Shown: positions 13,579-64,000, counted from the stretch's first letter. The stretch: DNA of 64,000 bases from Fluviicola sp. (GCA_017983675.1 JAGOAZ010000003.1:34719-98718); one strand, 5' to 3'. Translations and numbers: made by a program. Notes: generated from the letters alone by a model not told the origin.

Positions 13579-13732
13579 TGAATGAGATATTTCAACAAAA
13601 ATGCACAAAAATTAGCTCAGATTAACAGGGAATGACCGAAAAAATCAAGAAAATTAATTTTGAAAAAAATTGATCCCTCGGTGCAACGTTCACCCCCTTG
13701 AATTAGTCTTACCAAAAGAAAATAACTACAAT

Positions 13733-48523: not shown

Positions 48524-48880
48524 ATGGCAGCGATTCTTGTTTTTCTAGGAGGAGGAATTGGCGCTTTGTTGCGTTATTTGATTTCACAATTGACGGACAA
48601 AGTAACGACAACGACCTTACCTATTGCAACTTTTGTTTCCAATTTATTAGCATCCGTATTACTCGGCGTTTTCATTGCGCTTTTACGGGATAAAGTCCAA
48701 CATTCTGATTACTGGTATGCCTTTTTGGTGATAGGTGTTTGCGGCGGATTCAGCACTTTTTCATCTTTTGCAAAAGAAAATTTAGCCTTGATTGAAAAGG
48801 GACAATACGTGTATGCAGGATTGAACATCATCGTTTCTGTTGTCCTTTGTATACTTGCTGTTTATCTTGGGAAACGGTAA
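48524..48880 (+). CDS. crcB: Fluoride efflux channel Fluc/CrcB
   Basis: GGGIGALLRY, GVCGGFSTFSSF. Confidence 0.93.
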   Translation: MAAILVFLGGGIGALLRYLISQLTDKVTTTTLPIATFVSNLLASVLLGVFIALLRDKVQHSDYWYAFLVIGVCGGFSTFSSFAKENLALIEKGQYVYAGLNIIVSVVLCILAVYLGKR

Positions 48881-48963
48881 AATTATGCCACCGGAACTAA
48901 TTCATCAATTTGTTGCGCCAATTGTTGACGTTTCGTTACAATCTTTGTTGAGTTTGCATTTTG

Positions 48964-49160
48964 CACCTTTATCACTGAATCACAATTAAAACTTCTAGCA
49001 ACAACCAAAAATAATTGTATATTTAGCTTAACCAATTACCGAGTTATTGCAACACTCACAACCAAACACTCCTACGATTCGAATTTTTCTTGGTACAAAG
49101 ACTGTTCATCCAACTAAAACATTTGGACGAAACAGGAATTGAATTGCTTGTTGTGATTCA
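48964..49160 (+). repeat. Promoter/leader repeat, copy A (5' part only)
   Basis: 48976-49160 aligns to 50611-50794 with about 7 differences in 185 nt; contains TATATTTA at 49018. Confidence 0.92.
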
Positions 49161-49201
49161 TGATTAGAATAGTCATTTGTACGAACTCTATGCATTATAA
49201 T

Positions 49202-50518
49202 ATGAAACAATTTTATTTAGTGCTATTTTTTATTATTAATTGGGGAACCTCATTTACTCAATACAATAAAAAAAAACTGTTTATAGATGAAAACTTAAAC
49301 ACCATTAAAACAGCAATTTACATTGCGTTTCAAAAGCCTGACACAACAATAAATGCAACTGTTTTCAATGCTATTAATGTAACAGATTCTGCTCAAATAA
49401 TAAAAATAATATCCGTTGGTTATGAAGAGACCTTGATGTATTATCATAGTTTTTTGACTACGGATACAATACAATTATACCGACAAGCGAATCAAATAGA
49501 TGAAATAATTATTTCTTCTAATCCCATTAGAAAAGAATCTGAAGATTCAATGCATGTTGTTGATTTTCATTTTATTAATGGCAAATCAGTTGTATTACAA
49601 AAGTCAATTTATCATCACAAAGAAAAGTTTATATGCTATGAGAATAACTGTTTTCATACCAATGAAAAATCGAAACTATATTATCATCATATAAATGGAC
49701 AACAAGTGGTTGAAATTAAAGACTCGATATTTTTATTTGATGGGGTAATACTTTATCCCGTTGAAAGTAAATTATTATACGATTTAAAATTAAAATCTAT
49801 AATAGATTCAAATGACAGCCTTTACTATTTTAAAAATAATTTTTTTTATGAGCTTATAGATGAATATTCATGTCTGGATTTAGAAAACAATAAGGAAAAG
49901 AGTTTACACTTAACTTATGATAGTTTATCATTTATTTTTATTGCAAATTTCTACAAGCAATTCGCTAGAACCCCTCCAATATTTTTATATTACAAGTATC
50001 CACATAGAAATGCGAATAAAAAATTTACTAATCAAGAAAAAATTTCTATAAAAAATTTAAATGTTGAAACAGGTCAATTGTTTAAATACTTAGCTGGGAA
50101 CCCCGGTTTTGTTGATCAAGCAGCTATCCTTGAAAAATCAAGAAGCGAAGCCTGTCTATTAGATTCCACCTTTTATATCTTTGATTTTAACACTAAAAAA
50201 GTATACGCATATCACCGAGATCAATTAATCCAGACAATAAGTTTGAACTTAAAAAATGAATGGTATAAAAATGAATATAAATTGGATGAAACTTTAAAAA
50301 AAGCATATTTTTTATTTAAAACAGAAGAAGGATTAAAGCTTTTTGAAATTGATCTTAATTCAGGGAAATCTTCATTTATAGAGGCTCCCGATGCACTTAA
50401 TTCGTATCATCATTGGGAAATATCTGGAGGTCGTTTGTATTTTTTAAAGACGAATCCAGATTTAGATTGGCAACGAAAATTATTTTCTATTAGTATGGAT
50501 GAATTTAGAACCAAATGA
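49202..50518 (+). CDS. Hypothetical exported protein (possible carboxypeptidase-regulatory-like N-terminus)
   Basis: Long AT-rich ORF; signal peptide MKQFYLVLFF; ISVGYEE...QIDEIIISS resembles CarboxypepD_reg-like ends. Confidence 0.6.
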   Translation: MKQFYLVLFFIINWGTSFTQYNKKKLFIDENLNTIKTAIYIAFQKPDTTINATVFNAINVTDSAQIIKIISVGYEETLMYYHSFLTTDTIQLYRQANQIDEIIISSNPIRKESEDSMHVVDFHFINGKSVVLQKSIYHHKEKFICYENNCFHTNEKSKLYYHHINGQQVVEIKDSIFLFDGVILYPVESKLLYDLKLKSIIDSNDSLYYFKNNFFYELIDEYSCLDLENNKEKSLHLTYDSLSFIFIANFYKQFARTPPIFLYYKYPHRNANKKFTNQEKISIKNLNVETGQLFKYLAGNPGFVDQAAILEKSRSEACLLDSTFYIFDFNTKKVYAYHRDQLIQTISLNLKNEWYKNEYKLDETLKKAYFLFKTEEGLKLFEIDLNSGKSSFIEAPDALNSYHHWEISGGRLYFLKTNPDLDWQRKLFSISMDEFRTK

Positions 50519-50591
50519 ATTCCCATTTACCATAACCCGTTATAAATTGCGGGCCAACTTGCATTTGAATTGTAGCAAAATAGTACAATCG

Positions 50592-50985
50592 TTTCAATCA
50601 CCTTTTAAACTGAATCACAATTAAAACTTCTAGCAACAACCAAAAATAATTGTATATTTAGCTTAACCAATTACCGAGTTATTGCAATACTCACAACCCA
50701 ACACACGTACGATTCGATTTTTCTTGGTACAAAGACTGTTTATCCAACTAAAACATTTGGCCGAAACAGGAATTGAATTGCTTGTTGTGATTCAATTTTA
50801 GATTTATAAAGGAAGTGTTGGAACAGCTCAACTTAATAAAGACGCAAAAGATCTGTTTTTAAGAGCTGTTTGATTGCGCGTCTTTGTTTCTCGTTAGCAC
50901 GATGCGAATTACAAAGGTAGTTGTCTTTTCGTGCTGGAGGATCCGAAAAACGAGTATGAGTAGGGAAAATTTAAATATTCTACAA
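50592..50985 (+). repeat. Promoter/leader repeat, copy B (precedes precursor 1)
   Basis: Shares its 5' 185 nt with copy A and the 3' structured block (aaagac...gagtatgagtaggg, 50838-50965) with copies C and D. Confidence 0.9.
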
Positions 50986-51219
50986 ATGGCAAAAAAGAAA
51001 GAAAACTTACGAGAAAAATTTTCTAAAAATCAGATTGAATTAAGAAAAGTGTTTGGTGGAAGACGAAATAGTGAGCCATCATATTCTGAATGTGCAGGTA
51101 CAGGTTGTTCCATTATAACTAGTCAATCTGAATCTGGTATAATAATTAGAGATTGGGAAGATATTGAATGTGGTGATGATATGTATATGGGGGATGTAAT
51201 ATGTGCCCCAGTTGCCTAA
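50986..51219 (+). CDS. RiPP precursor peptide 1 (77 aa, double-glycine leader)
   Basis: MAKKKENLREKFSKNQIELRKVFGG|RRNSEPSYSECAGTGCSIITSQSESGIIIRDWEDIECGDD...; Lys-rich leader, GG site, Ser/Thr- then Asp/Glu-rich core with 4 Cys. Confidence 0.75.
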   Translation: MAKKKENLREKFSKNQIELRKVFGGRRNSEPSYSECAGTGCSIITSQSESGIIIRDWEDIECGDDMYMGDVICAPVA

Positions 51220-51239
51220 ACAAATTTATTTTATAAAAG

Positions 51240-51265
51240 ATGCAGCAATCAGAAGATTGTCGCAT
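51240..51265 (+). terminator. Hairpin after precursor 1
   Basis: atgc-a-gcaatc-agaa-gattgt-c-gcat imperfect stem; no U-tract. Confidence 0.4.
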
Positions 51266-51287
51266 TGAAAATCCTTAAAGAATTATT

Positions 51288-52175
51288 ATGAAGAATCTAA
51301 TATTTTTTTTGTTTTTGGTTTGCCTTCAAAATATTGCAAGAACACAGGTGTATCAGCACTTTATAACTTTTAAACATCCAGATATGGTTGAAATTCAATT
51401 TTATGCAGAAAAAGCTATTGATTTTTACTATTTAGAAAAGTATGATAGTTCAATTGTTTATAACTATAAAGTGAATAGTGTTCTTCCAGAATACTGGCAA
51501 TCATATTATAACTCGGCAGTTTGTTTTGCAAAGAAAAATCAAAAAGATAGTTGTTTTAAGTACCTAACAAAATATGTAACGTTAGCAAAAGAAAAGGTTA
51601 ATCTTGGTTATTTAAAGAATGAAAATTTAAATGTTTTGAGTCATGATTCGTTAAGTAAATTACAAAGTCTAGCTAAGTCAAATTTAGTATTAGATATCAC
51701 GAAAAATTATGATTTAATCAGCAATCTTGAATTATTAGATGGAAAAGAACAGGAAATACTAGGAAATGGATTTGGAAGAGATCGTAAAAAAGATTCATTG
51801 TTACTAAATAATTTCATTAAATTCTGTTCAATTATTGACACAAACAATTTCCCTTCAACAAGTGAAATAGGCATAGCAACAGGAGCAATACACAGATTGA
51901 TATTACACCTTGATTATGCACCAAATATGCAGTTTAGTTTAGGAAAAAAACTGTTAAAGCAACATAAAAAAGGATACAATAAAAAAGGAAGTGCTTACAT
52001 CATAGATCGATCTTTAAAAAATTTAGGAAAGCCTCAATTATATGGAACAATTTTAGAAAACAATACAAATTCTTTGTATGTGGTAGATGATATGAAAAAA
52101 GTAATTAAAAGAAGAAAAAAACTAAAATTTCAGCGTATTGAGGACTATTTACAAAATAAAAGCATTACCAAATGA
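51288..52175 (+). CDS. Exported TPR + DUF6624-like protein
   Basis: Signal peptide; YYNSAVCFA TPR-like helix; AYIIDRSLKNLGKPQLYGT resembles the DUF6624 C-terminal signature. Confidence 0.65.
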   Translation: MKNLIFFLFLVCLQNIARTQVYQHFITFKHPDMVEIQFYAEKAIDFYYLEKYDSSIVYNYKVNSVLPEYWQSYYNSAVCFAKKNQKDSCFKYLTKYVTLAKEKVNLGYLKNENLNVLSHDSLSKLQSLAKSNLVLDITKNYDLISNLELLDGKEQEILGNGFGRDRKKDSLLLNNFIKFCSIIDTNNFPSTSEIGIATGAIHRLILHLDYAPNMQFSLGKKLLKQHKKGYNKKGSAYIIDRSLKNLGKPQLYGTILENNTNSLYVVDDMKKVIKRRKKLKFQRIEDYLQNKSITK

Positions 52176-52240
52176 CCCTGATATTATCCAATCCATTTGT
52201 TCAAGTTTCTATGAATGAGGTGATTGAATGGTTGTGTTTT
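52172..52240 (+). pseudogene. 5' stub of an ATP-grasp maturase gene
   Basis: An ATGA-coupled ORF reads MTLILSNPFVQVSMNEVIEWL, matching MILILSSYMDASTNVVIDWL of the intact gene at 53929, then runs into repeat copy C and stops. Confidence 0.65.
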
Positions 52241-52672
52241 CAATCACCTTATAAACTGAACCACAAGTTAAAACTACTTGCAACAGCGAAAAATAATTAA
52301 AAAAATCATCAAGATAATTTGGATTTTAGAAAATTAGTTGTATATTTAGTTTAACAATTTACCGAGTTATTGCGACTCCACAACCAAACACACTTACGAC
52401 TCTTTTTTTTGATATCCCCATTGTTCATTATTTGTTAATGATCAATTATTGATTGAAATAATCTCACATTTAGTGAAGTTATCATAAAAAAAATAAGAGC
52501 TTGCTGCAACAAGCCCTTACCCAAAGACACAGGATCTGATGATTGCAGTCCTCTTTGAATGTGCGTCTTTGTTTCTCGCTTGCACGAAGCGATTCACAAA
52601 GATAGTTAATTACTTCGTGCTGGCGGTAACCGAAAAGCGAGTATGAGTAGGGAAGATTTAAACTAAATTTTT
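52238..52672 (+). repeat. Promoter/leader repeat, copy C (precedes precursor 2)
   Basis: The first ~60 nt resemble copy B; 52310-52672 closely matches copy D; promoter TTTG(52318)-19 nt-TATATTTA(52341). Confidence 0.92.
52486..52592 (-). ncRNA. Predicted cis-antisense small RNA (~105 nt) within leader C
   Basis: Minus-strand TATCTTTG at 52597-52604 and a minus-strand terminator gggcttg-ttgcag-caagctc-ttatttttttt ending near 52486; inferred only, no expression data. Confidence 0.45.
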
Positions 52673-52888
52673 ATGAAAAAAAAATCATTAAAAAAGTTGT
52701 CTGAATCATTGATGAAACAACAACTAAACTCAAAATCAATGGGAAATGTATTCGCGGGTGCGGATGGAACATGTGGAACGATCGTATCGACTGACACAAA
52801 ATCAGGAACAAAACTAACATCTGATGATTGTGATTACGATAACGATTGTACTCCAATTGTAGTCCCAGATACAACAATTGTTGTGTAA
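52673..52888 (+). CDS. RiPP precursor peptide 2 (grasp-with-SPASM substrate candidate)
   Basis: MKKKSLKKLSESLMKQQLNSKSMGNVFAG|ADGTCGTIVSTDTKSGTKLTSDDCDYDNDC...; Thr/Ser/Lys followed by an Asp-rich core, upstream of the ATP-grasp gene. Confidence 0.82.
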   Translation: MKKKSLKKLSESLMKQQLNSKSMGNVFAGADGTCGTIVSTDTKSGTKLTSDDCDYDNDCTPIVVPDTTIVV

Positions 52889-52907
52889 TTTTTTATAATA
52901 TAATAAT

Positions 52908-52943
52908 TAGAGTGTGTGAATAATTATATGTTCACACACTCTA
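52908..52943 (+). terminator. Perfect 13-bp hairpin after precursor 2
   Basis: tagagtgtgtgaa-taattatatg-ttcacacactcta. Confidence 0.65.
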
Positions 52944-52963
52944 TTCTTCCAATTTGATCAAAC

Positions 52964-53932
52964 ATGATAAATATTGTCAAACTATTTATTTTTATTCCTT
53001 TTTTCACTTTCACACAGTTTAATGAAAATGAATTAATGAAGTATATTGATACTAAAATTATCATTGATTCGCTTGCAAATGAAAATAAAGTAAATAAAAA
53101 GCAACTATTACACTATTATTCCTCTATTGAGAATAATATCTTATTTAGCAGAAAAGATTATCTTAATCAAGCTGTTGTATATTTAGATGAAAAAGAGTAC
53201 AAAAATGCTGAAAAATCGTTGGAACAGTGTTTGAAATATCAACCTCGACTATTTAATTTAAGTGATTCTTTACAAATAAGAAATAGTGCCTTTTATAAAA
53301 AATTTGAACCGAATGGATTATTAGACAGATTAATGGATAGTCTGATATCAAATACAAAAGAGTATTCATCCTACCGATCTCATTCGGATACTTCAATTCA
53401 TGTTTTTTATGAAACACTTTATCAGCATGATCAATTCATGCGAAGCAATGATGTCCAGATAAAATCTCTCATTTCTTTAAAATATTGGGAAATAGTTGAA
53501 AGCGATCTTTTTAAAATGCAAAATAAGTTTGATAGTATTAATCGTATAGAACTTCAAAATTTTACTAATGATCTAAAGAATATTGATTTTTATCATTTAG
53601 ATGAAAGCGACAAATATACTTTATTTTTGGTGGGCCAACACAGTGATTTTGATCTTGATTTTCAAAAAAGAATACTGGATATTTTTTTTAATAATTATCA
53701 TACCGGATCCATCAAACTTGAAAATCTAGTATATCTCATTGATCGTTATTTACTAAATACAAAAGGATATCAATTATTTGGTTCTCAGTTTGAATTTTTT
53801 GATAAAAAAATAGTATCAAAAAATTTACTTTATCCTATTTCTAAAGTTAACCAAATGCGAAAAATAGCCAGTCTACCCTCGCTAGAATCTTACCTTATTG
53901 ATGCAGATAACCTAATCGACGAAAAAAAATGA
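52964..53932 (+). CDS. DUF6624-like exported protein with TPR-like segment
   Basis: LYQHDQFMRS, LVGQHSD, VYLIDRYLLNTKGYQLFGSQF match the DUF6624 pattern (DQxxR...QH.D...YL.DR...Q.YG.Q). Confidence 0.7.
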   Translation: MINIVKLFIFIPFFTFTQFNENELMKYIDTKIIIDSLANENKVNKKQLLHYYSSIENNILFSRKDYLNQAVVYLDEKEYKNAEKSLEQCLKYQPRLFNLSDSLQIRNSAFYKKFEPNGLLDRLMDSLISNTKEYSSYRSHSDTSIHVFYETLYQHDQFMRSNDVQIKSLISLKYWEIVESDLFKMQNKFDSINRIELQNFTNDLKNIDFYHLDESDKYTLFLVGQHSDFDLDFQKRILDIFFNNYHTGSIKLENLVYLIDRYLLNTKGYQLFGSQFEFFDKKIVSKNLLYPISKVNQMRKIASLPSLESYLIDADNLIDEKK

Positions 53933-54930
53933 TATTGATATTATCTTCCTATATGGATGCTTCTACTAATGTAGTTATTGACTGGTTAAAAGCATTAGGT
54001 CATCAATATATACGAATCAACGCATTTGATGAATTGTCCAATAATATTAATTCCTTAAATATTACAAACGAAAATTCTGATGTGATAATTGAGAGTATGG
54101 GTATTACATTTAATCTGAAAGATATTCATGTAATATGGTACCGTCGTTCTGATATGGAGCATGATTCCTTGATACCAGTAACGACACCGTTTTCTTCATT
54201 AAAAATGGAAATTAATCATTTTTTGATCGAAGAATTTCGTGAATTTAGATCCAGTTTTTACAGTATTTTACGGAATAAATATTGGTTGGGACATCCTAAA
54301 TTAAGTCATGTAAATAAAATACTTCAATTGGAAATTGCCCGAGAAGTTGGTCTAAAAATTCCAGAAACGATCATCACCACAAAAAAGCAGGAATTATATA
54401 ATTTTCTTACACTTCACACGAAAATTATTTGTAAACCAGTAAAACATATTAAGCATTTTGATATTGAAGATAAAATGTTAACAGTTTATACAATAGGAAT
54501 AAACGCTGATGATATTTCAAAATTACCAGATAAATTACCACCTTCGATTATTCAAAAAAACATTGAAAAATCGATCGAATTACGTATTTTTTATCTTGAT
54601 GGAAAATGTTATTCAATGGGTATTGATTCTCAAAAAATGGAAAGTTCAGTTATCGATTTCAGAAATCTGGATGATAACGAAATAACGCGACGTTTTCCAA
54701 TTAAAATCAGTTCATCACTAGAAAAAAAAATAGATCTTTTGATGAAAAAATTAAACCTTAACACTGGGTCTCTGGATATAATAATTTCTAAGGATGATGA
54801 AGCTTATTTTCTTGAGGTAAACCCAGTGGGACAATTTGGAATGATATCACATCCCTGTGGATACAATCTAGAGAAAAAAATTGCAGAATTTTTAGTTGAA
54901 AAAGATAAACAATATGAGCAAAAAAATTGA
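53929..54930 (+). CDS. gwsG: Grasp-with-SPASM system ATP-grasp peptide maturase (graspetide synthetase)
   Basis: MILILS...VIDWL, VIWYRR, NKILQLEIAREVGLKIPETII, ICKP, QKNIEKSIELRIFYL, IDFR, FLEVNPVGQFGMIS. Confidence 0.88.
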   Translation: MILILSSYMDASTNVVIDWLKALGHQYIRINAFDELSNNINSLNITNENSDVIIESMGITFNLKDIHVIWYRRSDMEHDSLIPVTTPFSSLKMEINHFLIEEFREFRSSFYSILRNKYWLGHPKLSHVNKILQLEIAREVGLKIPETIITTKKQELYNFLTLHTKIICKPVKHIKHFDIEDKMLTVYTIGINADDISKLPDKLPPSIIQKNIEKSIELRIFYLDGKCYSMGIDSQKMESSVIDFRNLDDNEITRRFPIKISSSLEKKIDLLMKKLNLNTGSLDIIISKDDEAYFLEVNPVGQFGMISHPCGYNLEKKIAEFLVEKDKQYEQKN

Positions 54931-55132
54931 CGAAATAATTGATGATTTAAGTATGCATAAATTACCACTTAATGTACTTTTTGGAGAAATTAAAGAAAAA
55001 AAGATGAGGTATATTCCAGTTTCTAATTTTGGAAATAACGGCGGTAAGATTATTGCTGAAAATTTTTATAAACCTTTATCAAACTTAACTTTTGATTATG
55101 AAAGATTTAAAGAAATGGAGTCTATATCCTAA
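54914..55132 (+). CDS. Small hypothetical protein (72 aa) between the two maturases
   Basis: MSKKIDEIIDDL...; overlaps both neighbours on the same strand. Confidence 0.55.
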   Translation: MSKKIDEIIDDLSMHKLPLNVLFGEIKEKKMRYIPVSNFGNNGGKIIAENFYKPLSNLTFDYERFKEMESIS

Positions 55133-56201
55133 CTGCATTATTGTACAAGGATACTCTAATAGCATTGTTCTGGATATTTACAGACAACGGATGTTTCGTT
55201 TTGATTCAGAATTAGTACCTTGTTTTGAAGATTTAGATTTATTGCAAGTGCTAGAAACAAAGGCTTTGTTAGAAAATTCTATCATAAAAAGATTAGTTGA
55301 ATTAGATTACCTTACAAGCTCTTCAAGTCACTTTGAATCGACAAACAGTTTTACTGAATACGAATCACCTTTTCCAGTTGATTGTTGGATTGTTGAATTA
55401 AAAGGTGAAGATTCACTGATTTCAAATTTATTAGTGACTTATTTACAGAAAGTAGGTGCGATAGCAATACAATTAATCTTTTCCGAATCCTCCATTGATA
55501 CGATCAAGAAAAACCTGCTGTATATAAAACAAACCAATGTAGATTATGTTGAAGTTGTTGTAAAAGAAGGAAAGAAGTATGAGGCTGATTTTGAGAATAT
55601 TTTTAAGTTAGATGATCGGGTTAGGTTGATTTTTTCTGAAGATCAAGCTTATCTTAATAGAAAAGTAGAATTTGTTAAAAAACAAAACTTCAGTGGTTGG
55701 GTTATTCGACAAAATTCTGCGAGCAATATTTCAGATAAATCTTTCGACATTAATGAAATAGTGTACCTTGAATCTCTGAATCATCATCCATTTTATAACA
55801 AAAGATTTTTTTTGGATGCATCTGGTTTTTTTATGTCCTATCAAGATAGTAGACAGACATTGTTTAACATTAATAGTATGAAATCTATTTCAGATATACA
55901 AGATGTTGTACAGGATATAGATATGATAAAATTCTGGGATGTTAGCACAAAAAAAATTGAAGTTTGTATGGATTGTGAATTTAGAAATTGCTGTATTACC
56001 GATAAAATACCGATGAATAGGAATGGTGATAATTGGTATTATTATGAAGAATGCAACTACAACCCATATATTGCAAAATGGGAAGGAGAAGATGGTTACT
56101 TAACCTTAGCTGAATGTGGCGTAATATCAAATGAAAATGAGTTTTCAATTGACCACGAAAACATCGCATTAATTAATAAAGAGTTGTGGGGAGATGAGTA
56201 A
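55092..56201 (+). CDS. gwsS: Grasp-with-SPASM system SPASM-domain peptide maturase
   Basis: N-terminal NCIIVQGYSNSIVLDIYR; C-terminal IEVCMDCEFRNCCITD...CNYNPY SPASM cysteines; no CxxxCxxC radical-SAM motif visible. Confidence 0.85.
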   Translation: MIMKDLKKWSLYPNCIIVQGYSNSIVLDIYRQRMFRFDSELVPCFEDLDLLQVLETKALLENSIIKRLVELDYLTSSSSHFESTNSFTEYESPFPVDCWIVELKGEDSLISNLLVTYLQKVGAIAIQLIFSESSIDTIKKNLLYIKQTNVDYVEVVVKEGKKYEADFENIFKLDDRVRLIFSEDQAYLNRKVEFVKKQNFSGWVIRQNSASNISDKSFDINEIVYLESLNHHPFYNKRFFLDASGFFMSYQDSRQTLFNINSMKSISDIQDVVQDIDMIKFWDVSTKKIEVCMDCEFRNCCITDKIPMNRNGDNWYYYEECNYNPYIAKWEGEDGYLTLAECGVISNENEFSIDHENIALINKELWGDE

Positions 56202-56302
56202 ATTCTATTTCTACCAACAAACATACATTATTGTTGGTCCAAAGTCTTATTATTGATGATTAATTAAAAGTTTATTTGCATATAAATGCGAAATTAAATT
56301 AC

Positions 56303-56665
56303 AAGATAACTTGTCATTTAAAAAATTAATTGTATATTCGATTAACCATTTACCGATTTATTGCAATACAAACATCCAAACACACGTACGACTCTTTTTT
56401 TTTGATATGCCCATTGCTCATTATTTGCTAATGAACAATTTTTTATTTCAATAATCTCACATTTGGTGAAGTTATCATAAAAAAAATAAGAGCTTGCTGC
56501 AACAAGCCCTTACCCAAAGACACAGGATCTGAAGATTGCAGTCCTATTTGAATGTGCGTCTTTGTTTCTCGCTTGCACGAAGCGATTTTCAAAGATAGTT
56601 ATTTTTTCGTGCTGGCGATTCCGAAAAGCGAGTATGAGTAGGGAAAATTTAAACTAAAATTTAGT
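56303..56665 (+). repeat. Promoter/leader repeat, copy D (precedes precursor 3)
   Basis: Closely matches 52310-52672; promoter TTG(56311)-19 nt-TATATTCG(56333). Confidence 0.92.
56479..56585 (-). ncRNA. Predicted cis-antisense small RNA within leader D
   Basis: Minus-strand TATCTTTG at 56590-56597 and the same terminator hairpin plus T-tract ending near 56479; inferred only. Confidence 0.45.
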
Positions 56666-56869
56666 ATGAAAAATTCAAAAATGAGTTTGGAGGCTTTCAA
56701 AGCTAAAGCTGAAAACCAAAATGTAGAAATTGCAATGGATAATATTCAAGGCGGAAATTTGTTTAATTGTCATGGAGAATCCGGACAAGCTGGAAAGAAA
56801 ATAGGCAGATGGATTACTGATAGAGTTGACAATTGGTTAAATGGGCCAAATGGACCACAGTTACCATAA
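56666..56869 (+). CDS. RiPP/bacteriocin-like precursor peptide 3 (double-glycine leader)
   Basis: MKNSKMSLEAFKAKAENQNVEIAMDNIQGG|NLFNCHGESGQAGKKIGRWITDRVDNWLNGPNGPQLP. Confidence 0.8.
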   Translation: MKNSKMSLEAFKAKAENQNVEIAMDNIQGGNLFNCHGESGQAGKKIGRWITDRVDNWLNGPNGPQLP

Positions 56870-56884
56870 ACAATTTTGAAATAG

Positions 56885-56921
56885 AATCTAGTAGTTAGCT
56901 TTCAGTTAACTACTAGGTTTT
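56885..56921 (+). terminator. Hairpin/terminator after precursor 3
   Basis: aatctagtagttagct-ttc-agttaactactaggtt: 16 bp with two G.U pairs, followed by T residues. Confidence 0.7.
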
Positions 56922-56936
56922 TAATGCATTTTTATT

Positions 56937-58082
56937 ATGAAAATATTTTTTTCCTTTTTTTTTCTTCTAATAAGTTCATGTTCTTTGATGAAGAACAAAT
57001 TGTTTAAATATTTTTATTATGAACCAAAAATAAAATATGAATTTTATAGCGAAATTCCCTACGAAATAAAAAATGGACTAATTCTAATTCATCTTAATAT
57101 AGACGGTTCTGATTGTAAATTTGTTTTTGATACAGGTTCTAAAAGCTATATCAAAAATCAAATTCAAAAAAAAATGGATTTGCGGCACTATTTTAATTCC
57201 GCATCAACTGATGCTAATAAAATTAAAGTAGAATCTGAAATAGTTTTAGGAAATTTAGCTTTGGGAGACTTGAAAGTTAATAATTTTAAATTTCACACTA
57301 AAGAATCATTCCCTTTTGATTGTCATAATACAATAGACGGAATATTGGGTAATGACATATTGAACCAAGGTGTTTTCTTTTTCGATAATGATGCGAAAAA
57401 ACTAATTGTTACAAACTCAATTAATAAAATTGATGATTTGAAAGAATTTAAAAGGTTACCAATTAAAATAAATTTAGGTGACATTATATTAAAAAAAAAT
57501 AAAGAAGTTTTTACATTAGATTCGGGATATTCATATGGTTTCATTTTAACAAATCGAAAGTCTTTTTTATATAATGATACTTGTGAAAGCAAGATTTTTA
57601 TGCAGAATATAAACGCATTAAATTCTTCTCGACTTAAAGAGACAATTTATCAAAACGGAGATTTATGTCTTGCAGGAAATAAATACTCAGGAATAATCCA
57701 ATTTACAGATGGTTTTGATACAAATATTTTAGGTAGCTATTGGTTTTTTGCTAATAATATTATTATTGACATAGATAAAAAGGTTATCTATTTAAAGAAA
57801 AAAAAAATATACAGCATTAACCAAATATCAAATATATTAAACATTAATTTTTCTTTCTTAAATGGTAACGTTGTTATTTCTGGAATTTCGAATAGTATTT
57901 CAAGTGTAAAGTTGTATGATCATGTTTTGAAAGTTAACAATGTTGATTTAAAAGACATTCACAGTGAATGTGAACTACAAGAAGTTCTTAAATCTCAAGA
58001 TAAAGAATTAGGATTTAACCTTGATTTAAAGCGAGATAGAGATACTATTAGCGTTTTTTTATCAAAGGAAGATCTATACTAA
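56937..58082 (+). CDS. Lipoprotein with tandem retropepsin-like aspartyl protease domains and a probable C-terminal PDZ
   Basis: Lipobox LISSC; FVFDTGS and FTLDSGY catalytic-type motifs; DGILGNDIL; HVLKVNNVD PDZ-like. Confidence 0.72.
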   Translation: MKIFFSFFFLLISSCSLMKNKLFKYFYYEPKIKYEFYSEIPYEIKNGLILIHLNIDGSDCKFVFDTGSKSYIKNQIQKKMDLRHYFNSASTDANKIKVESEIVLGNLALGDLKVNNFKFHTKESFPFDCHNTIDGILGNDILNQGVFFFDNDAKKLIVTNSINKIDDLKEFKRLPIKINLGDIILKKNKEVFTLDSGYSYGFILTNRKSFLYNDTCESKIFMQNINALNSSRLKETIYQNGDLCLAGNKYSGIIQFTDGFDTNILGSYWFFANNIIIDIDKKVIYLKKKKIYSINQISNILNINFSFLNGNVVISGISNSISSVKLYDHVLKVNNVDLKDIHSECELQEVLKSQDKELGFNLDLKRDRDTISVFLSKEDLY

Positions 58083-58092
58083 ACATTTTAAT

Positions 58093-59310
58093 ATGCAAAA
58101 GGAAATATATTTTGAACAAAATATTCAAACAGGCAGAGAAGCCTTAATAGAAAACATTAAATTAGTGCTTTACAACAAAACCCCTTCAATTTTTGAACTC
58201 TTGGATTTTGAAAACGACAAAATTTACACTGATTCGTTTGTGTTTGCTGCTCTAAATTCAAAACAAAAGGTAGAAGTAATGGATGTTTTGTGGGGATATA
58301 AGTCAACTTTTTTGCAAGAACAACCAGTTCATTTAGTTACTGACGAAATTGGTAGAATTTACTTGCCAAATTTAGGATATTTCAACACGGATAAAATATT
58401 AACTCCGTTAGACATATCGTTCAAATCTGAATCTTATGTTTTAAAAGACGAGAAGCAACAAGAAGTAAATTTTTCATTCGAGCCACCTTTGTTAATTCAT
58501 GGTCTATTTGAAGTTATAAAACATCCTCATAATTTACTCTACGAACATTTTTTTAAATCTGAAGGAGATCTTGTAACAGTAGAAGTCTCAGAGATAACAC
58601 AAAGGCATTTGGAACATGTAACCCTTGCATTTGACCATATAAGAGATTATTCTTATGAATTTTATGTAATGTTAAAGATTTGTTTGAGAAATATTATGAT
58701 TTTTAAATCTAATGCCTATGAATTTATGAACACTGAAGTTGTTGATAGAAATTCGTTTGCAACGCTGTCTGTTCACGGTTGTGCCTTTTTTAATGCTTTC
58801 CAGGATGAATATAACGAAGTTTTTTTCATTGAAGATATTGCCCATCAAGGTGGACACGTGATTTTCAATACTTTTTTAGCTGCAAAACCTGATATTTTTA
58901 AGATTGATCAACATGTAAATATCGCATCGCAAGAGGAAGTTGAATTTTATGAAGAGGAAAGAAGTTTATTTGTTGTTATGCACGCAATGTTTACGTATGA
59001 TTCAATAATTACCTGCTTAAGTAATTGTATAGATAACAAGGTGTTTGAAGGTCATAAATTGCACGAATTGTTAGGGAGACTTGCTTTTAATTGTTATAAA
59101 TTCGGTCAAGATTTTGAATTGTTGTCTCAATTGGATAATGAAGGAAATAGTATCTTTTTTAAAGATGAGGGAAAATTATTACTCACCCAGTTTTTAGAAA
59201 CGTATAAAGGTGTATTATTGAAACATAGAAAATTAATTCAACCCCTTAATTTAAGCAATCAACCGTACAACTTTTCTTACAAAATTTTTCTAAAGAATAA
59301 TCCAATATAA
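58093..59310 (+). CDS. aKG-HExxH-like peptide-modifying enzyme with HQGGH variant motif
   Basis: NSFATLSVHGCAFF, EDIAHQGGHVIF (58843-58857) and downstream VMHAMFTY (His at 58981) are spaced as in HExxH-domain proteins; no signal peptide. Confidence 0.62.
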   Translation: MQKEIYFEQNIQTGREALIENIKLVLYNKTPSIFELLDFENDKIYTDSFVFAALNSKQKVEVMDVLWGYKSTFLQEQPVHLVTDEIGRIYLPNLGYFNTDKILTPLDISFKSESYVLKDEKQQEVNFSFEPPLLIHGLFEVIKHPHNLLYEHFFKSEGDLVTVEVSEITQRHLEHVTLAFDHIRDYSYEFYVMLKICLRNIMIFKSNAYEFMNTEVVDRNSFATLSVHGCAFFNAFQDEYNEVFFIEDIAHQGGHVIFNTFLAAKPDIFKIDQHVNIASQEEVEFYEEERSLFVVMHAMFTYDSIITCLSNCIDNKVFEGHKLHELLGRLAFNCYKFGQDFELLSQLDNEGNSIFFKDEGKLLLTQFLETYKGVLLKHRKLIQPLNLSNQPYNFSYKIFLKNNPI

Positions 59311-59311
59311 A

Positions 59312-59761
59312 ATGAAAAAAACAATTTTATTTTTTTTATTGCTCTTACTAAATAGAACAGGCAATAGTCAAGTTAATGATTTCAAACTTTGTGGAGATCA
59401 AAAAACGTACCCCTATTATTATCCCGAATTAATTTATAAAGGTGGATTTTATGAAGTAAAATCTCAAATTTTAATCAAATTGAATCAAACTTTTTTAAAT
59501 AATAATATTAATGGAATTATAACTATTCAATTTCATGTAAACTGTGAAGGACAGACAGGTAATTTTAATGTAAAACAAACAGATTTGGATTATAATGATA
59601 CAGTATTAGATGAAAAATTGTCTCAAGATTTATTAGAAATTGTTAAAAATCTAAATGGTTGGATTCCAGCCAAAAATGAAAACGGAGAGATTGTTAATAG
59701 TCATAAATTTCTTTCTTTCCGTATCGAAAACGGTGTTTTAACAGAAATTCTCCCAAAATAG
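59312..59761 (+). CDS. Exported TonB C-terminal-like domain protein
   Basis: Signal peptide; GIITIQFHVNCEGQTGNF...LNGWIPAK...FRIENG pattern of energy-transducer TonB_C-like domains. Confidence 0.55.
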   Translation: MKKTILFFLLLLLNRTGNSQVNDFKLCGDQKTYPYYYPELIYKGGFYEVKSQILIKLNQTFLNNNINGIITIQFHVNCEGQTGNFNVKQTDLDYNDTVLDEKLSQDLLEIVKNLNGWIPAKNENGEIVNSHKFLSFRIENGVLTEILPK

Positions 59762-59767
59762 TATTTT

Positions 59768-60640
59768 ATGAATAAACTAAAAATAATTGTCATTTGTTGT
59801 TGTTTTTTAAACAGTATTGATTGTTTGTCACAGGAAAAAACAAAAATTGTTTTATCACAAGAAGAACAAAATTTTGTTAATTCCCATAAAGATAGTATTC
59901 CCATTGAAAATCCATACGGTCTTATCAGTATTGGCTATCAAGACATATATATGGGGAATAATTTGCGAGGAAATAAAATTATGGCTTTGGGGCTAGAAAG
60001 GATAAAAAAAAAGGATTATGAATTATTACATGAGTTATCTGTACAAAACACAAAAAACGGAAATTATTCAATCGCATATGATTATCTGAAAGAAGCAGCA
60101 AATTTGAATCCAGAAGTTTATGGTTATTTTGGTTGGGTCATGCTTTATTATTACAGGGATTACAAAAGAGCTTTGAATTATTTGACCATCTATGACTCAT
60201 TAACTCCAAATTTTAGTGATTTTCCTGCAGGTGAAAACCTTTATATGCTAAAAGGATTAAGTTACCTCATGCAAAAGGATTATGAAAATGCAATTTTAGA
60301 ATTTTCAAAATACATTAAGGAAACTACAATTACAATTGGTGAAAAATGGGTAGATGTAAGTACGTTTTATTATATGGGAATAGCAATGTTAAATTCTGGA
60401 AATGACAAAGCGGCTATCAACTATTTTAATTTGGCTATAAAATATAATCCACACTTTTTAGAAGCCTTTTATGAAAGAGGAAAATGTTTTAACAGATTAG
60501 GAAAAAAGAAAAAAGGACTAAAAAACTTTCAAATTGCGAAACAATTATTTATTCAGGGTTATCAAAAAACAGATGTTTATGTTGAAATATTTTACCCTGT
60601 TTATTTACAAGATATAGTCAAGGAAATTGCGAAGTATTAA
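59768..60640 (+). CDS. Exported tetratricopeptide repeat protein
   Basis: Signal peptide; YENAILEFSKYI, AAINYFNLAIKYNPHFLEAFYERG TPR units. Confidence 0.8.
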   Translation: MNKLKIIVICCCFLNSIDCLSQEKTKIVLSQEEQNFVNSHKDSIPIENPYGLISIGYQDIYMGNNLRGNKIMALGLERIKKKDYELLHELSVQNTKNGNYSIAYDYLKEAANLNPEVYGYFGWVMLYYYRDYKRALNYLTIYDSLTPNFSDFPAGENLYMLKGLSYLMQKDYENAILEFSKYIKETTITIGEKWVDVSTFYYMGIAMLNSGNDKAAINYFNLAIKYNPHFLEAFYERGKCFNRLGKKKKGLKNFQIAKQLFIQGYQKTDVYVEIFYPVYLQDIVKEIAKY

Positions 60641-60643
60641 AAA

Positions 60644-62833
60644 ATGAAAAAATTCCCATTCTACAAACAACCTGACGCAATGGATTGCGGCCCAACCTGC
60701 CTTCGCATGGTCGCTAAGTACCATGGCCGATCTATTTCCTTGCAAAAACTGCGCTTCAACTCAGAAACAACGAGAGCTGGCAGTAGTCTAAAAGGCATCA
60801 GCGAGGCGGCGGAAAACATCGGGTTTCGGACTTTGGGTGTTAAGGTAGATTTTATCAATTTGACAGAAAATGCACCTTTACCTTGTATAGTTTTTTGGAA
60901 TGAAAAGCATTTCGTTGTTGTTTATAAAATTAAAAAAGACAAAATATATATTTCAGACCCAGCACATGGTTTATTGGTCTACTCCAAACAAGAATTTATA
61001 GATAACTGGATAGGATCAACAGCCAATGAATTAACCCAAGAAGGGATAGCTTTGCTATTAGAACCGACACCCAAACTCAAGGAGACAGAAGAAGACGATA
61101 AAGCACCAAAAGAAGGTTTTTCTTTTCTGTTTTCGTATGTGAAAGGTCACCGAAAATTGATGGTACAGTTGGGGCTTGGTTTATTGGTAGTTAGTATCTT
61201 ACAACTTATTTTTCCATTCTTGACCCAAAGTGTGGTCGACATCGGTATCCAAAACAAAGACATGAGTTTTTTGTATTTGGTACTCGTTGGGCAATTATTT
61301 GTTTTTTTGGGTAGAACGTTTGTAGAAATTATTCGGGGTTGGATATTGCTTCACATGAGCGCACGTATCAATATTGCTCTGGTTTCCGATTTTCTCATTA
61401 AACTGATGAAATTGCCTTTGTCTTTCTTCGACATAAAAATGACAGGCGATATTTTGCAACGCATACAAGACCATCAACGTATTGAGAATCTTTTGACCAG
61501 TCAATCGCTCAATGTGTTGTTTTCGGCAATCAATTTTATTGTTTTCGGTATCGTTTTGTCCATATACAACATTCCAGTTTTTTTGGTCTTTTTAGCTGGA
61601 ACAGTTCTTTACTTTGTCTGGGTTAGTTTTTTCTTGAAAAAGCGAAAAGATTTAGATCACAAACGCTTCTTCCAAATGCGAGATGAGCAATCCAAAGTAT
61701 TGGAATTGATAGCGGGCATGCAAGAGATAAAACTACACAATGCTGAACGAAGCAAACGTTGGAATTGGGAACATATCCAAGTCAAATTGTTCAAGATTCA
61801 ACTTTCTAGCTTGCGCTTGGAACAATTGCAGACCAATGGCGCCAATTTCATCAACGAATTAAAAAACATCATTATCAGTTTTTTAACCGCTAAATTGGTT
61901 ATCGAAGGTCAATTAACCTTAGGAATGATGCTTTCAGTTTCCTATATCATTGGACAGTTAAATGCTCCTATTGCTCAATTTTTAGGATTCATTTACTCTT
62001 TGCAAGACGCAAAAATATCGTTGGAACGATTAGCAGAAATTCATAACAAAGAAGACGAAGAACCGATGCCAGAAAATTTAGCACATGAATTACCTGAAAA
62101 TAAGACGCTTACATTAGATCGTGTAAGTTTTCGGTACACAGGGTCTGCATCCAACGTACTAGAAAATATTTCATTGACCATTCCAGAAAACAAAATAACG
62201 GCTATTGTTGGAGCAAGTGGGAGCGGAAAAACTACTTTAATGAAACTATTACTCCGTTTTTATGAACCTACAGAAGGAAAATTAAAAATCGGCGAAAGTG
62301 AATTGAACAGCATTCGTCAATATACGTGGCGTGCGCATTGTGGCTCTGTCATGCAAGATGGCTTTTTGTTCAGCGATACTATTGCAAATAATATTGCTGT
62401 TGCAGATGAATATATAGATAAAACAAAACTAAAGAAAGCAGCACACATTGCTAATATTCGAGATTTTGTGGATAGTTTACCACTCAATTTCAATACAAAG
62501 ATTGGCTCAGACGGAATGGGAATAAGTGGAGGTCAAAAACAGCGGATTTTGATAGCACGTGCAGTGTATAAAACCCCTGATTTTTTATTTTTTGATGAAG
62601 CAACGAGTGCTTTAGATGCCAACAACGAAAAAGTAATTATGGAGAATTTGAATGACTTTTTTCAAGGAAGAACAGCTGTTGTGATTGCTCATCGATTAAG
62701 TACTGTAAAAAATGCGGATCAAATTATTGTGTTGGATCATGGAAAAATTATTGAACAAGGCACGCATATTGAGTTAATTGAGTTGAAAGGTAGTTATTTT
62801 CATTTGGTAAAGAATCAGTTGGAGTTGAATTAA
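60644..62833 (+). CDS. Peptidase C39-containing ABC transporter (PCAT, leader-cleaving exporter)
   Basis: QPDAMDCGPTCL (catalytic Cys), WNEKHFVV (His), SDPA (Asp); TM domain; GASGSGKTT, ISGGQKQR, FFDEATSALD. Confidence 0.96.
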   Translation: MKKFPFYKQPDAMDCGPTCLRMVAKYHGRSISLQKLRFNSETTRAGSSLKGISEAAENIGFRTLGVKVDFINLTENAPLPCIVFWNEKHFVVVYKIKKDKIYISDPAHGLLVYSKQEFIDNWIGSTANELTQEGIALLLEPTPKLKETEEDDKAPKEGFSFLFSYVKGHRKLMVQLGLGLLVVSILQLIFPFLTQSVVDIGIQNKDMSFLYLVLVGQLFVFLGRTFVEIIRGWILLHMSARINIALVSDFLIKLMKLPLSFFDIKMTGDILQRIQDHQRIENLLTSQSLNVLFSAINFIVFGIVLSIYNIPVFLVFLAGTVLYFVWVSFFLKKRKDLDHKRFFQMRDEQSKVLELIAGMQEIKLHNAERSKRWNWEHIQVKLFKIQLSSLRLEQLQTNGANFINELKNIIISFLTAKLVIEGQLTLGMMLSVSYIIGQLNAPIAQFLGFIYSLQDAKISLERLAEIHNKEDEEPMPENLAHELPENKTLTLDRVSFRYTGSASNVLENISLTIPENKITAIVGASGSGKTTLMKLLLRFYEPTEGKLKIGESELNSIRQYTWRAHCGSVMQDGFLFSDTIANNIAVADEYIDKTKLKKAAHIANIRDFVDSLPLNFNTKIGSDGMGISGGQKQRILIARAVYKTPDFLFFDEATSALDANNEKVIMENLNDFFQGRTAVVIAHRLSTVKNADQIIVLDHGKIIEQGTHIELIELKGSYFHLVKNQLELN

Positions 62834-62885
62834 AGAAAAAATAAATTGCAGATGATGAAATCTGTCCTCAGAAATTAAAAATAAC

Positions 62886-64000
62886 ATGCAAGAAATTAAA
62901 GACATTGATATATCACTTAAAAGCGAACCAATGAATGAAATGCTTTCGCATCCACCTTCATGGATAGTTCGTTCTGGAAATTCTATATTTTTCTTAATCA
63001 TTTTTTTAATGCTTACACTTTCATGGATAATAAAATACCCAGATGAAATCAATGGCAATGCTTTAGTAACAACAAAACAACCACCAATTGAAATTGTCAA
63101 TCAATCGTATGCACAACTCATTGCAATTAATGTAAAATCGGAACAAAAAGTAAAAAAAGGACAGTTATTGATTCAATTTGATAACAAAGCAGCTAAAAAA
63201 GACATTGAATTTATTACAACATATTTATCAGAATTAAAATTAGAAGAAAGCAAACAAATTCCAACAGAATCTAAGTTGTTACAATTAGGTACATTTCAAG
63301 ATTCATGGATCAATTTACAAACAAAAATAAATGAATGGAATACAAACTTATCTTCTAATTTATTCAATGAACAAATCAATTCAATACAACGAGAAATAAT
63401 TTATCGACAACGATTACAAACTATTTCGAGTAGAAAAATCAAACTTTCTGAATCGGAATATAACCTGATTGCTGAAGATTTAAAAGCAAGTCAAAAATTA
63501 CTCGAACAAAATGCAATTTCGAAACAAAATTTGAATCAAGACAAACGCAATGAAACACAAGCAATGCAAAGTGTTCAATCTCAAAAAGAACAATATGTTC
63601 AAAATCTGATTCAATTGAATACCCTCAAAAGTCAATTACTCAATTTGAAAATTGAAAATCAAACGAAACTACGTGAATTGAAATCTATGATTGAATCAGC
63701 TGTTTCTAATTTAAAAAGTCAATTATACGATTGGACTAAAAACGCCATTTGGACATCTCCATGTGATGGCAAAGTATTGTTCAATAAAATCTTGCAAAAA
63801 GATAAGTTTTACAAACCAAATGAGGCTTCTATAGTTGTTGTCCCTAATGGAAGTAAATATATTGCTTTTGCAAAAATAACCTCAATCGGAGCAGGGAAAG
63901 TAAAAACTGGACAACAAGTTTTTATTGAATTGGAAGATTTTCCAAAAAATGAATTTGGTATGATTGAAGGCTTTGTTTCAAGTATTACACCAATAGAAAA
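62886..64000 (+). CDS. HlyD family membrane fusion protein (partial, runs off the window)
   Basis: Not in the ORF track because it has no stop. Translates MQEIKDIDISLKSEPMNEMLSHPPSWIVRSGN-TM-KYPDEINGNA...SPCDGKV...GKVKTGQQVFIELEDFPKNEFGMIEG. Confidence 0.92.
   Translation, partial: MQEIKDIDISLKSEPMNEMLSHPPSWIVRSGNSIFFLIIFLMLTLSWIIKYPDEINGNALVTTKQPPIEIVNQSYAQLIAINVKSEQKVKKGQLLIQFDNKAAKKDIEFITTYLSELKLEESKQIPTESKLLQLGTFQDSWINLQTKINEWNTNLSSNLFNEQINSIQREIIYRQRLQTISSRKIKLSESEYNLIAEDLKASQKLLEQNAISKQNLNQDKRNETQAMQSVQSQKEQYVQNLIQLNTLKSQLLNLKIENQTKLRELKSMIESAVSNLKSQLYDWTKNAIWTSPCDGKVLFNKILQKDKFYKPNEASIVVVPNGSKYIAFAKITSIGAGKVKTGQQVFIELEDFPKNEFGMIEGFVSSITPIE

Follow-up and report, generated by a model that had tools for sequence, protein, structure and literature searches.

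The locus described here raises the question of how three short peptide genes, belonging to two kinds of predicted modification chemistry, come to stand behind related copies of one promoter and leader sequence with a single peptide exporter among them. It is situated in a 64,000-nt stretch of Fluviicola sp. (GCA_017983675.1, JAGOAZ010000003.1:34719-98718; this whole stretch is called the window, and positions are counted from its first nucleotide), where from position 48,964 onwards four units, A to D, follow each other on the plus strand. Unit A is an orphan gene for an exported protein, B and C are graspetide-type cassettes without and with an ATP-grasp ligase, and D combines a peptide precursor and an enzyme with the motif HQxxH with a peptidase-containing ATP-binding cassette transporter (PCAT). 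The reading that we favour, and hold to be probable from the sequence comparisons below, is that of a strain-specific, horizontally acquired island for bacteriocins or other peptides made on the ribosome and modified post-translationally (RiPPs), in which peptide cassettes have been stacked before a resident exporter.

Pairwise alignments of the regions ahead of the units extend over 61-372 nt with 69-94% identity, in agreement with the initial annotation, in which four related repeats (R1-R4) were proposed to head four units. R1 (48964-49168) and R2 (50599-50802) are 93.7% identical over 205 nt, R3 (52310-52677) and R4 (56302-56670) 88.7% over 372 nt, R2 (50866-50975) and R4 (56544-56653) 86.4% over 110 nt, and R2 (50592-50651) and R3 (52238-52298) 88.5% over 61 nt; the longer alignment of R2 (50642-50975) with R3 (52330-52662) gives 69% over 354 columns including 41 gaps. 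A blastn comparison of the four blocks with the whole 2.85-Mb assembly revealed no copy outside the island. Each repeat is a mosaic of up to four parts. A short tail left from a truncated gene is combined with a promoter-like TTGTATATTTAG segment and with a middle that varies, R1 and R2 having one version of it and R3 and R4 another; the fourth part, a precursor-proximal block of ~110 nt, is found in R2, R3 and R4 and is missing from R1. The junction formed by the 5' end of an ATP-grasp gene and the leader occurs three times, ahead of each of the units A, B and C, so that each unit ends in the same scar.

When comparing 83 loci containing the HQxxH gene, PCAT and HlyD genes were found usually to follow it, often with a conserved gene for a retropepsin-like lipoprotein before and genes for a 149-aa protein and a tetratricopeptide repeat (TPR) protein after; in 45 of the 83 a PCAT gene lies downstream on the same strand, most of the others being contigs that end too soon. 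The HQGGH protein of the window has 78 homologue clusters, the module itself was found in >100 metagenome loci, and its precursor forms a family in 19 loci, with the leader ...RLSLDAFKAKAEN...VLEKVQGG and the core x(3-5)-CHG-xWG...K. Since the module is conserved with its own PCAT-HlyD pair across loci, the exporter is native to D and not, as had been suggested, a neutral common route, and from its gene content D is a self-contained, widespread and unnamed module that owns its exporter, making it a candidate new RiPP class. The aspartyl protease (Asp_protease_2, E 5e-7), HQGGH enzyme, TPR protein, PCAT and HlyD previously assigned to D are all confirmed. The transporter aligns in full length with TIGR03796 (460 bits), TIGR01846 (437) and TIGR01193 (421), all under the curated cut-offs, and it is therefore described by its PCAT architecture and not as a named equivalog; PF03412 is recorded on its homologues. 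The island extends past the end of the window with the rest of HlyD and then a TolC-like gene, so that the export set is complete (C39 peptidase with permease and ATPase of the ATP-binding cassette type, HlyD adaptor and outer-membrane factor).

A second, independent case of stacking is found in L134, a metagenome scaffold from ENA where the neighbouring genes are ppa, a sulfatase gene and glycosyltransferase genes. This locus starts with a D module (HQxxH protein 47% and PCAT 74% identical to those of the window), followed by an 86-codon (286-nt) C39 stub that matches the real PCAT gene at its 5' end with 96% identity, by a duplicate of ~650 nt holding the 3' end of ppa together with the leader (94-100% identical), by a complete graspetide cassette (57-aa precursor, 178-aa exported protein, ligase, small protein and SPASM protein) and by the full PCAT, HlyD and outer-membrane factor genes. 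The cassette, in which the 178-aa protein was assigned to the cluster-23/DUF6624 type by position only, lies between the TPR and PCAT genes, and the order of the cassette types is the reverse of that in the window. The arrangement is the one that an illegitimate or unequal join of two versions of one locus would be expected to leave. In further D-type loci, too, repeats of the upstream region are found past HlyD.

The island as a whole differs from its surroundings in base composition, with a GC content of 28-30% against 37-41% in the flanks, and forms an insert of 16.6 kb between crcB and a convergent acyltransferase gene. It is bounded by a 66-nt direct repeat, both copies of which consist of the 3' end of the acyltransferase gene and match at 63/66 bases. 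In nine related contigs the flanks are collinear on both sides (81-92% nucleotide identity in the seven that were aligned), and all nine are without the whole island; crcB and the acyltransferase gene there have their stop codons within ~10 nt of each other (9/9), and the 66-nt element is carried as a single copy. The whole island is, on this comparison, an insertion, apparently acquired horizontally and specific to the strain. The gain or loss of single cassettes that had been anticipated downstream of crcB is replaced in these nine syntenic contigs by absence of the entire island. As a further observation, the 66-nt repeat resembles an integration site that restores a gene end.

Cassette C could be placed in a class that has been described computationally. 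The ATP-grasp ligase exceeds the cut-off of TIGR04192 (272.3 bits vs 230) in a full-length alignment, and the exported TPR protein that precedes it reaches PF20329 (28.3 bits vs a cut-off of 27). A small open reading frame of the "LPL" type stands directly upstream of the SPASM gene, and TIGR04193 is the sole family match of the SPASM protein, in which no radical-SAM CxxxCxxC motif was found, nor in its homologue in L134. According to Makarova et al. 2022 (PMC8939145), the Bacteroidetes-specific loci of the branch 5 graspetides combine an ATP-grasp ligase and a SPASM protein with a secreted protein of "cluster 23" and a small one of the "LPL" kind, and DUF6624 and SPASM are listed as uncharacterised partners co-occurring with graspetide groups (Carter et al. 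2026, PMC13097080). Judged by its genes, cassette C is thus a new member of the grasp-with-spasm or branch 5 class, with side-chain ester or amide macrocycles on the core peptide as its predicted chemistry, and this part of the composite, which the initial annotation had not recognised, falls in the class of Makarova et al. (PMC8939145). As in the TIGR04192-TIGR04193 systems, its genes form a complete set arranged as described, starting with a precursor of the double-glycine (GG) type, and the same set is found in L134 and its first three genes in a genome of the same genus (L010). Unlike them it has a SPASM protein far below the family cut-off and a second, ligase-less copy (B), and it is joined by a shared leader to another chemistry and to an exporter.

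In cassette B the 295-aa exported protein matches DUF6624 weakly by itself (PF20329, E 0.019), and the label "DUF6624-like" given to it earlier holds through its homologues, 6/10 of those sampled being true DUF6624 proteins. The ATP-grasp stub that follows, also noted earlier, was upheld by a shuffle test: against residues 1-20 of the C ligase it has a Smith-Waterman score of 46 (shuffles 26 +/- 4, matched by 9/5000), and its overlap with the gene before it is the 4-nt ATGA also seen in cassette C. BLASTP with the stub gave no match, the query being too short. Its DNA is ~67% identical to that of the C ligase over 60 nt and then at background level, which makes B a diverged sister of C, as far as can be read from the sequence, and not a recent copy.

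The leaders of the three precursors end in VFGG, VFAG and IQGG, as GG or AG ends had been reported for all of them, and each has hydrophobic residues at -4 and -7, a pattern in keeping with cleavage by a C39 peptidase. A short motif is common to precursors 1 and 2, and the start of precursor 1 is most likely at 50986 and not at the TTG at 50884. A predicted hairpin follows each precursor gene (Table 1). Such a hairpin 3' of a precursor gene is the usual means of keeping precursor in excess over the enzymes.

The precursor-proximal block of the leaders contains a putative RNA core. In R2, R3 and R4 the final ~35 nt have the form (G)GCG(G/A)..CCGAAAAGC-N6-GAGTAGGGAA, and the 19-base pattern CCGAAAAGC-N5-6-GAGTAGGGAA is exact in R3 and R4 and one base off in R2. 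In a pattern scan of genome contigs the exact pattern was found at >119 sites across Bacteroidota, almost always 14-22 nt (median 17, n = 109) before a start codon, to be compared with 18, 18 and 20 nt in the window. Eight canonical sites were scored, of which seven are Rfam DUF805 (RF03081, 70-86 bits) and the eighth a sub-threshold DUF805b (RF02914, 30 bits), and the link of the window cores to DUF805 derives from these scans of other genomes. Directly upstream of their orthologous D precursors, 4/7 loci tested (L138, L152, L156 and L158) carry true DUF805b at 40-49 bits, where the gathering score is 35.6. Scanning the island against Rfam at E <= 1 gave nothing, the Fluviicola genome has no DUF805 match above threshold, and a metagenome scan for the window-specific core form CCGAAAANCNAGTATGAGTAGG returned 0 matches. 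The window core is read as a diverged member of the DUF805b leader class: it resembles DUF805 and DUF805b (clan CL00115) in the core GGCGG..CCGAAAAGC-N5-6-GAGUAGGGAA and in its spacing to the start codon, and differs in that the window copies score 15.7 bits or less, the first hairpin is replaced and the core is part of a repeated leader of ~330 nt. Because of the fixed spacing to the start codon, the core most likely acts on translation initiation. The two motifs reportedly stem from the survey of Weinberg et al. in 2017, and we know of no function for them; a search of the literature for functional studies of DUF805 RNA found none. The genes behind canonical DUF805 leaders (L015-L133) are diverse and mostly encode exported, lipoprotein or membrane products, including TM2-domain, aquaporin and rhodopsin-like proteins, which hints at a link between motif and envelope proteins.

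The variant of the window was also found in L010, where it precedes a graspetide-type GG-leader peptide gene; an exported protein of 322 aa and an ATP-grasp ligase are encoded next. Instead of the canonical first hairpin this variant has a longer, nested stem-loop, in the window with the pairs TCTTTG/CAAAGA and TCGCTT/AAGCGA, predicted in R3, R4 and L010 with arms that are changed yet complementary. When the window and L010 were compared by eye, both stems of this first stem-loop, P1 and its inner hairpin, changed compensatorily; RNAalifold with four sequences gave 1 compensatory pair only, and single-sequence folds of the leaders were modest (z -2.5 to +0.2). The nested stem-loop of the extended leader is therefore, with the four modelled sequences, suggestive.

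Taken as a working model, D would be the founding module, with its GG-leader "CHG" precursor, HQxxH enzyme, periplasmic accessories and PCAT-HlyD-TolC set, and the graspetide-type cassette C (intact), the ligase-less B and the unrelated A would have been added upstream of it. These additions would have come about by recombination or duplication, leaving a truncated ATP-grasp 5' end and a new copy of promoter and leader at each junction. Transcription of each precursor would start in the copy of the shared leader that precedes it, the DUF805b-like core 18-20 nt before the ATG would set or regulate translation, and the hairpin after each precursor would keep it in excess over the enzymes. The ATP-grasp ligase with the LPL and SPASM proteins would cross-link precursor 2 and might also act in trans on precursor 1, the HQxxH enzyme is predicted to oxidise precursor 3, and the single PCAT system would cleave all three after GG/AG and export them. 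Common export, processing of precursor 1 in trans and co-regulation are what we infer from the gene arrangement.

Several results weigh against this model. The R3 core, with 15.7 bits to DUF805b (E 0.028, 141 nt searched), is far below the gathering score of 35.6, and those of R2 and R4 were not reported for RF02914 at E <= 10; no recombinase, integrase or transposase gene is present among the open reading frames of the island; and the similarity of precursors 1 and 2 is marginal, 234/5000 shuffles scoring as well, which leaves the processing of precursor 1 in trans speculative. The SPASM protein of cassette C misses the TIGR04193 cut-off (73.4 bits vs 175), and its C-terminal Cys cluster is present in a shortened form (CxxCxxxxCC), so that cassette C may be partly degenerate. 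Graspetide stacking was seen in two loci only (the window and L134/L144) among the 83 HQxxH loci and is therefore real but rare. This rarity among D-type loci and the low SPASM score would also suit repeats that are duplication scars without a shared regulatory role, A and B being inert leftovers and only C and D, or D alone, productive; B without a ligase, R1 without the RNA core, and unit A, unrelated to peptide biosynthesis and with few homologues, in other contexts, can be read in the same way. Against such scars, which we consider unlikely, precursor 1 and the DUF6624-like gene of B are intact and without frameshift, and the leader of precursor 1 retains core, spacing and downstream hairpin. 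Moreover, leader identity from unit to unit is 83-94%, whereas the coding parts of B and C can hardly be aligned, which speaks for the leader being under selection or gene conversion.

That the PCAT-HlyD pair accompanies the HQxxH module in most loci, and that graspetide loci are typically without a C39 transporter of their own (PMC8939145), could mean that C and D are merely adjacent clusters, the PCAT serving precursor 3 only and the graspetides leaving by another route or being retained in the cell or attached to it. This is rendered quite improbable by the PCAT-substrate-like ends of precursors 1 and 2 (VFGG and VFAG with hydrophobic -4 and -7), by the 88.7% identity of the C and D leaders over 372 nt and by the two independent loci in which a graspetide cassette is set directly against the exporter (in L134 between TPR and PCAT). 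The direct repeat around the island invites the comparison with a mobile element, in which R1-R4 would be miniature inverted-repeat transposable elements (MITEs) or sites like the attC of integrons and not regulatory leaders. The repeats are, however, always gene-oriented and in 3/4 cases stop at a constant spacing to a start codon, their junctions are gene stubs and not attC-like hairpins, and the island has neither integrase nor transposase, which makes this very improbable; a MITE or other mobile repeat was ruled out by the lack of any further copy in the genome. The favoured reading, cassettes stacked before the exporter of D, accommodates part of what the initial annotation called a modular platform: the separable cassettes at a shared leader and the recurrent stub junctions remain, with L134 in their support, and the parts that fell away are cassette-wise variation among relatives, which was not found in the nine contigs, and the exporter as a neutral common route. 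A more far-reaching version, in which the leader (promoter, structured 5' untranslated region and DUF805b-type core) and the conserved 5' ends (ATP-grasp, PCAT) act as recombination handles and plug-in expression signal for capturing, stacking and swapping cassettes before a resident exporter, is regarded as doubtful; if true, it would correspond, for modified peptides, to an integron that needs no recombinase, with the DUF805-type RNA as a portable module for translation or regulation of such cassettes.

Taken individually, the parts of the island are of known or computationally predicted kinds and it is their stacking that is informative. The pln locus of Lactobacillus plantarum is a comparable multi-peptide system. 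In the blp locus of Streptococcus pneumoniae a variable bacteriocin-immunity region is combined with the exporter BlpAB (PMC3171984, PMC6422914, PMC6016807). With these two systems the window has in common several variable peptide cassettes, copies of a shared regulatory sequence, one C39 transporter of the ATP-binding cassette type and strong variation between strains. Theirs are unmodified class II peptides in Gram-positive hosts of the Firmicutes with a DNA site for a response regulator, in contrast to the peptides of the window, which are predicted to be enzyme-modified, in a host of the Bacteroidota, without a regulator gene and with a shared element that includes an RNA motif of the 5' untranslated region. 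The difference from blp lies in the phylum, the mix of two chemistries, the DUF805-class RNA element and the stub-and-leader junctions in two independent loci. Contact-dependent growth inhibition (CDI) and Rhs systems contain arrays of orphan toxin-immunity cassettes. Such arrays are similar in having silent or partial cassettes beside an active one and the stub of a conserved gene, a possible recombination handle, at each junction, and are unlike the window in that they swap toxin tips within one large gene, whereas here whole operons with their own leaders are stacked (polymorphic toxins are reviewed in PMC3482391). The two independent loci suggest a route by which Bacteroidota may assemble hybrid peptide arsenals at a shared leader with one exporter. 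To our knowledge, such a stacking route to peptide diversification has not previously been laid out for Bacteroidota. In addition, three diverging paralogous leaders of the DUF805b type before small, easily assayed genes provide a handle on an unexplained RNA motif.

Table 1. Features of the island and its borders (window positions; assignments by profile, position or model as stated)
Feature	Position	Strand	Basis or remark
Direct repeat, left copy, 66 nt	48880..48945	.	C12 83598-83663; acyltransferase 3' end duplicated
R1: stub tail, promoter-like TTGTATATTTAG segment, variable part	48957..49168	+	without precursor-proximal RNA core
Unit A, orphan exported protein	49160..50518	+	likely start M15 at 49202, signal-peptide-like N-terminus
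R2: putative promoter and 5' leader of precursor 1	50592..50985	+	repeat alignment
R2 RNA core (putative)	50934..50967	+	ends 18 nt before ATG
Precursor 1, 77 aa	50986..51219	+	leader end VFGG; core with 4 Cys, rich in Ser/Thr/Asp/Glu
Hairpin after precursor 1	51239..51266	+	-11.5 kcal/mol, z = -2.1
Unit B exported TPR protein with divergent DUF6624 domain	51288..52175	+	PF20329 E 0.019
ATP-grasp stub	52172..52300	+	~21 codons match ligase N-terminus, reading frame then enters R3
R3: putative promoter and 5' leader of precursor 2	52238..52672	+	repeat alignment
R3 RNA core (putative)	52620..52654	+	ends 18 nt before ATG; RF02914 15.7 bits
Precursor 2, 71 aa	52673..52888	+	leader end VFAG; core with 3 Cys, rich in Thr/Ser/Asp/Lys
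Hairpin after precursor 2	52908..52943	+	-21.7 kcal/mol, z = -5.2
Unit C exported TPR and DUF6624 protein, "cluster 23" type	52964..53932	+	PF20329; PMC8939145
ATP-grasp peptide ligase, grasp-with-spasm	53929..54930	+	TIGR04192
Small "LPL"-type protein, 78 aa (...HKLPLNVLF...)	54896..55132	+	position and motif as in PMC8939145
SPASM-domain protein, divergent	55092..56201	+	TIGR04193 below cut-off
R4: putative promoter and 5' leader of precursor 3	56292..56665	+	repeat alignment
R4 RNA core (putative)	56612..56645	+	ends 20 nt before ATG
Precursor 3, 67 aa	56666..56869	+	leader ...SLEAFKAKAEN...IQGG; core NLFNCHG...GK
Terminator-like hairpin and U-run after precursor 3	56883..56921	+	-20.6 kcal/mol, z = -5.1
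Retropepsin-like lipoprotein, lipobox LISSC	56937..58082	+	PF13650 (Asp_protease_2) E 5e-7
HQxxH enzyme, predicted alpha-ketoglutarate (aKG)-HExxH oxygenase fold	58093..59310	+	AlphaFold2 model, Foldseek
Exported 149-aa protein, TonB C-terminal-domain-like fold	59312..59761	+	predicted fold
Exported TPR protein	59768..60640	+	profile match
C39-peptidase transporter (PCAT)	60644..62833	+	TIGR03796, TIGR01846, TIGR01193
HlyD-type adaptor	62886..64000, on to 64166	+	TIGR01843 E 2e-28
TolC-like gene	64163-65437, past window end		open reading frame; L134 counterpart with faint PF02321 OEP match
Direct repeat, right copy, 66 nt	65525-65590, past window end		C12 100243-100308

To address the nature of the HQxxH enzyme, for which neither Pfam nor NCBIfam gave a match and a sequence profile found nothing relevant in the PDB, its homologues and its AlphaFold2 model were analysed. 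The motif is HQxxH and not HExxH, with H251, Q252 and H255 invariant in 34 homologues together with H297, E325 and R329. The model (predicted local distance difference test, pLDDT, 94.2) was matched by Foldseek to 22ob (SjiH; E 5e-8, probability 1.0) and to 8s5f (the HExxH domain of ChlB; E 1e-6, probability 1.0), with template modelling (TM) scores of 0.5-0.6 to both and the next match at E > 1. The enzyme is, according to the model, a variant of the aKG-HExxH oxygenase fold family and a predicted oxygenase. It resembles the aKG-HExxH oxygenases of RiPP pathways (ChlB, 8s5f; SjiH, 22ob; PflC/PosC, PMC12636437) in its predicted fold and in that its gene adjoins a short GG-leader precursor, and it differs from them in the HQxxH motif with an invariant Gln, in having no sequence-level match to PDB, Pfam or NCBIfam, and in travelling with the retropepsin-like lipoprotein and the TonB-C-terminal-domain-like and TPR proteins. 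For the 149-aa protein, previously labelled TonB_C-like, there is no sequence-family match; its model (pLDDT 86) has TonB C-terminal domains as best matches (probability 0.98-0.99, E 0.014-0.03), which lends the label weak-to-moderate support. In the D-type loci L149 (3323-3544) and L152 (9352-9573) a gene for a 73-aa helix-turn-helix protein, a possible dedicated regulator, is located immediately upstream of the precursor; the island of the window has no such gene.

The promoter regions of the repeats were searched for the Bacteroidota -7 motif (TAnnTTTG), and no perfect copy was found on the plus strand; the best candidate, TATATTTA at 49018, 50653 and 52341, is for this reason a tentative assignment. 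The sequence TATATTTAG is present in R2, R3 and R4, and transcription may start just 3' of it. A scan for σ70 promoters gave 81 sites vs 85 expected, the consensus being uninformative for Bacteroidota. On the minus strand a perfect TAnnTTTG occurs in each precursor-proximal leader (50912-50919, 52597-52604 and 56590-56597), and a terminator-like hairpin with a T-run lies ~100 nt beyond it in R3 (52491-52522) and R4 (56484-56515), so that a putative antisense RNA of ~100 nt from the leaders could pair with all the near-identical leaders.

Upstream of the core a further hairpin with variable stem and the conserved loop CTGCAA or CTACAA, with an A-run before it and AAAGAC(G/A) after it, was observed in the window (52480-52530 and 56473-56523), in L010 and in L134 (near 8100-8150 and 13565-13615); R2 retains only the AAAGACGC part of this region. 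A Flavo-1 RNA (RF01705, 60 bits) was detected on the minus strand at 7990-8075 of the Gaetbulibacter locus L138, ~1.6 kb upstream of the D precursor.

For the protein of unit A no Pfam or NCBIfam match was found, and among 5.8 billion proteins it has 5 homologue clusters, 0/5 of them in a RiPP or peptide-biosynthesis context. A homologue at L224 (3656-4996) directly follows NamZ and FtsX-type genes, which also form the right flank of the island in the Fluviicola genome, and therefore the unit A gene may be a local pick-up. Finally, another case of a repeated leader ahead of a different peptide is given by L153 (16134-16586), where a copy of the precursor upstream region (87.6% over 145 nt) is located after HlyD and is followed, ~120 nt further on, by a gene for a 62-aa Cys/Thr-rich peptide (MTFGQANAMN...CGCGTS...).

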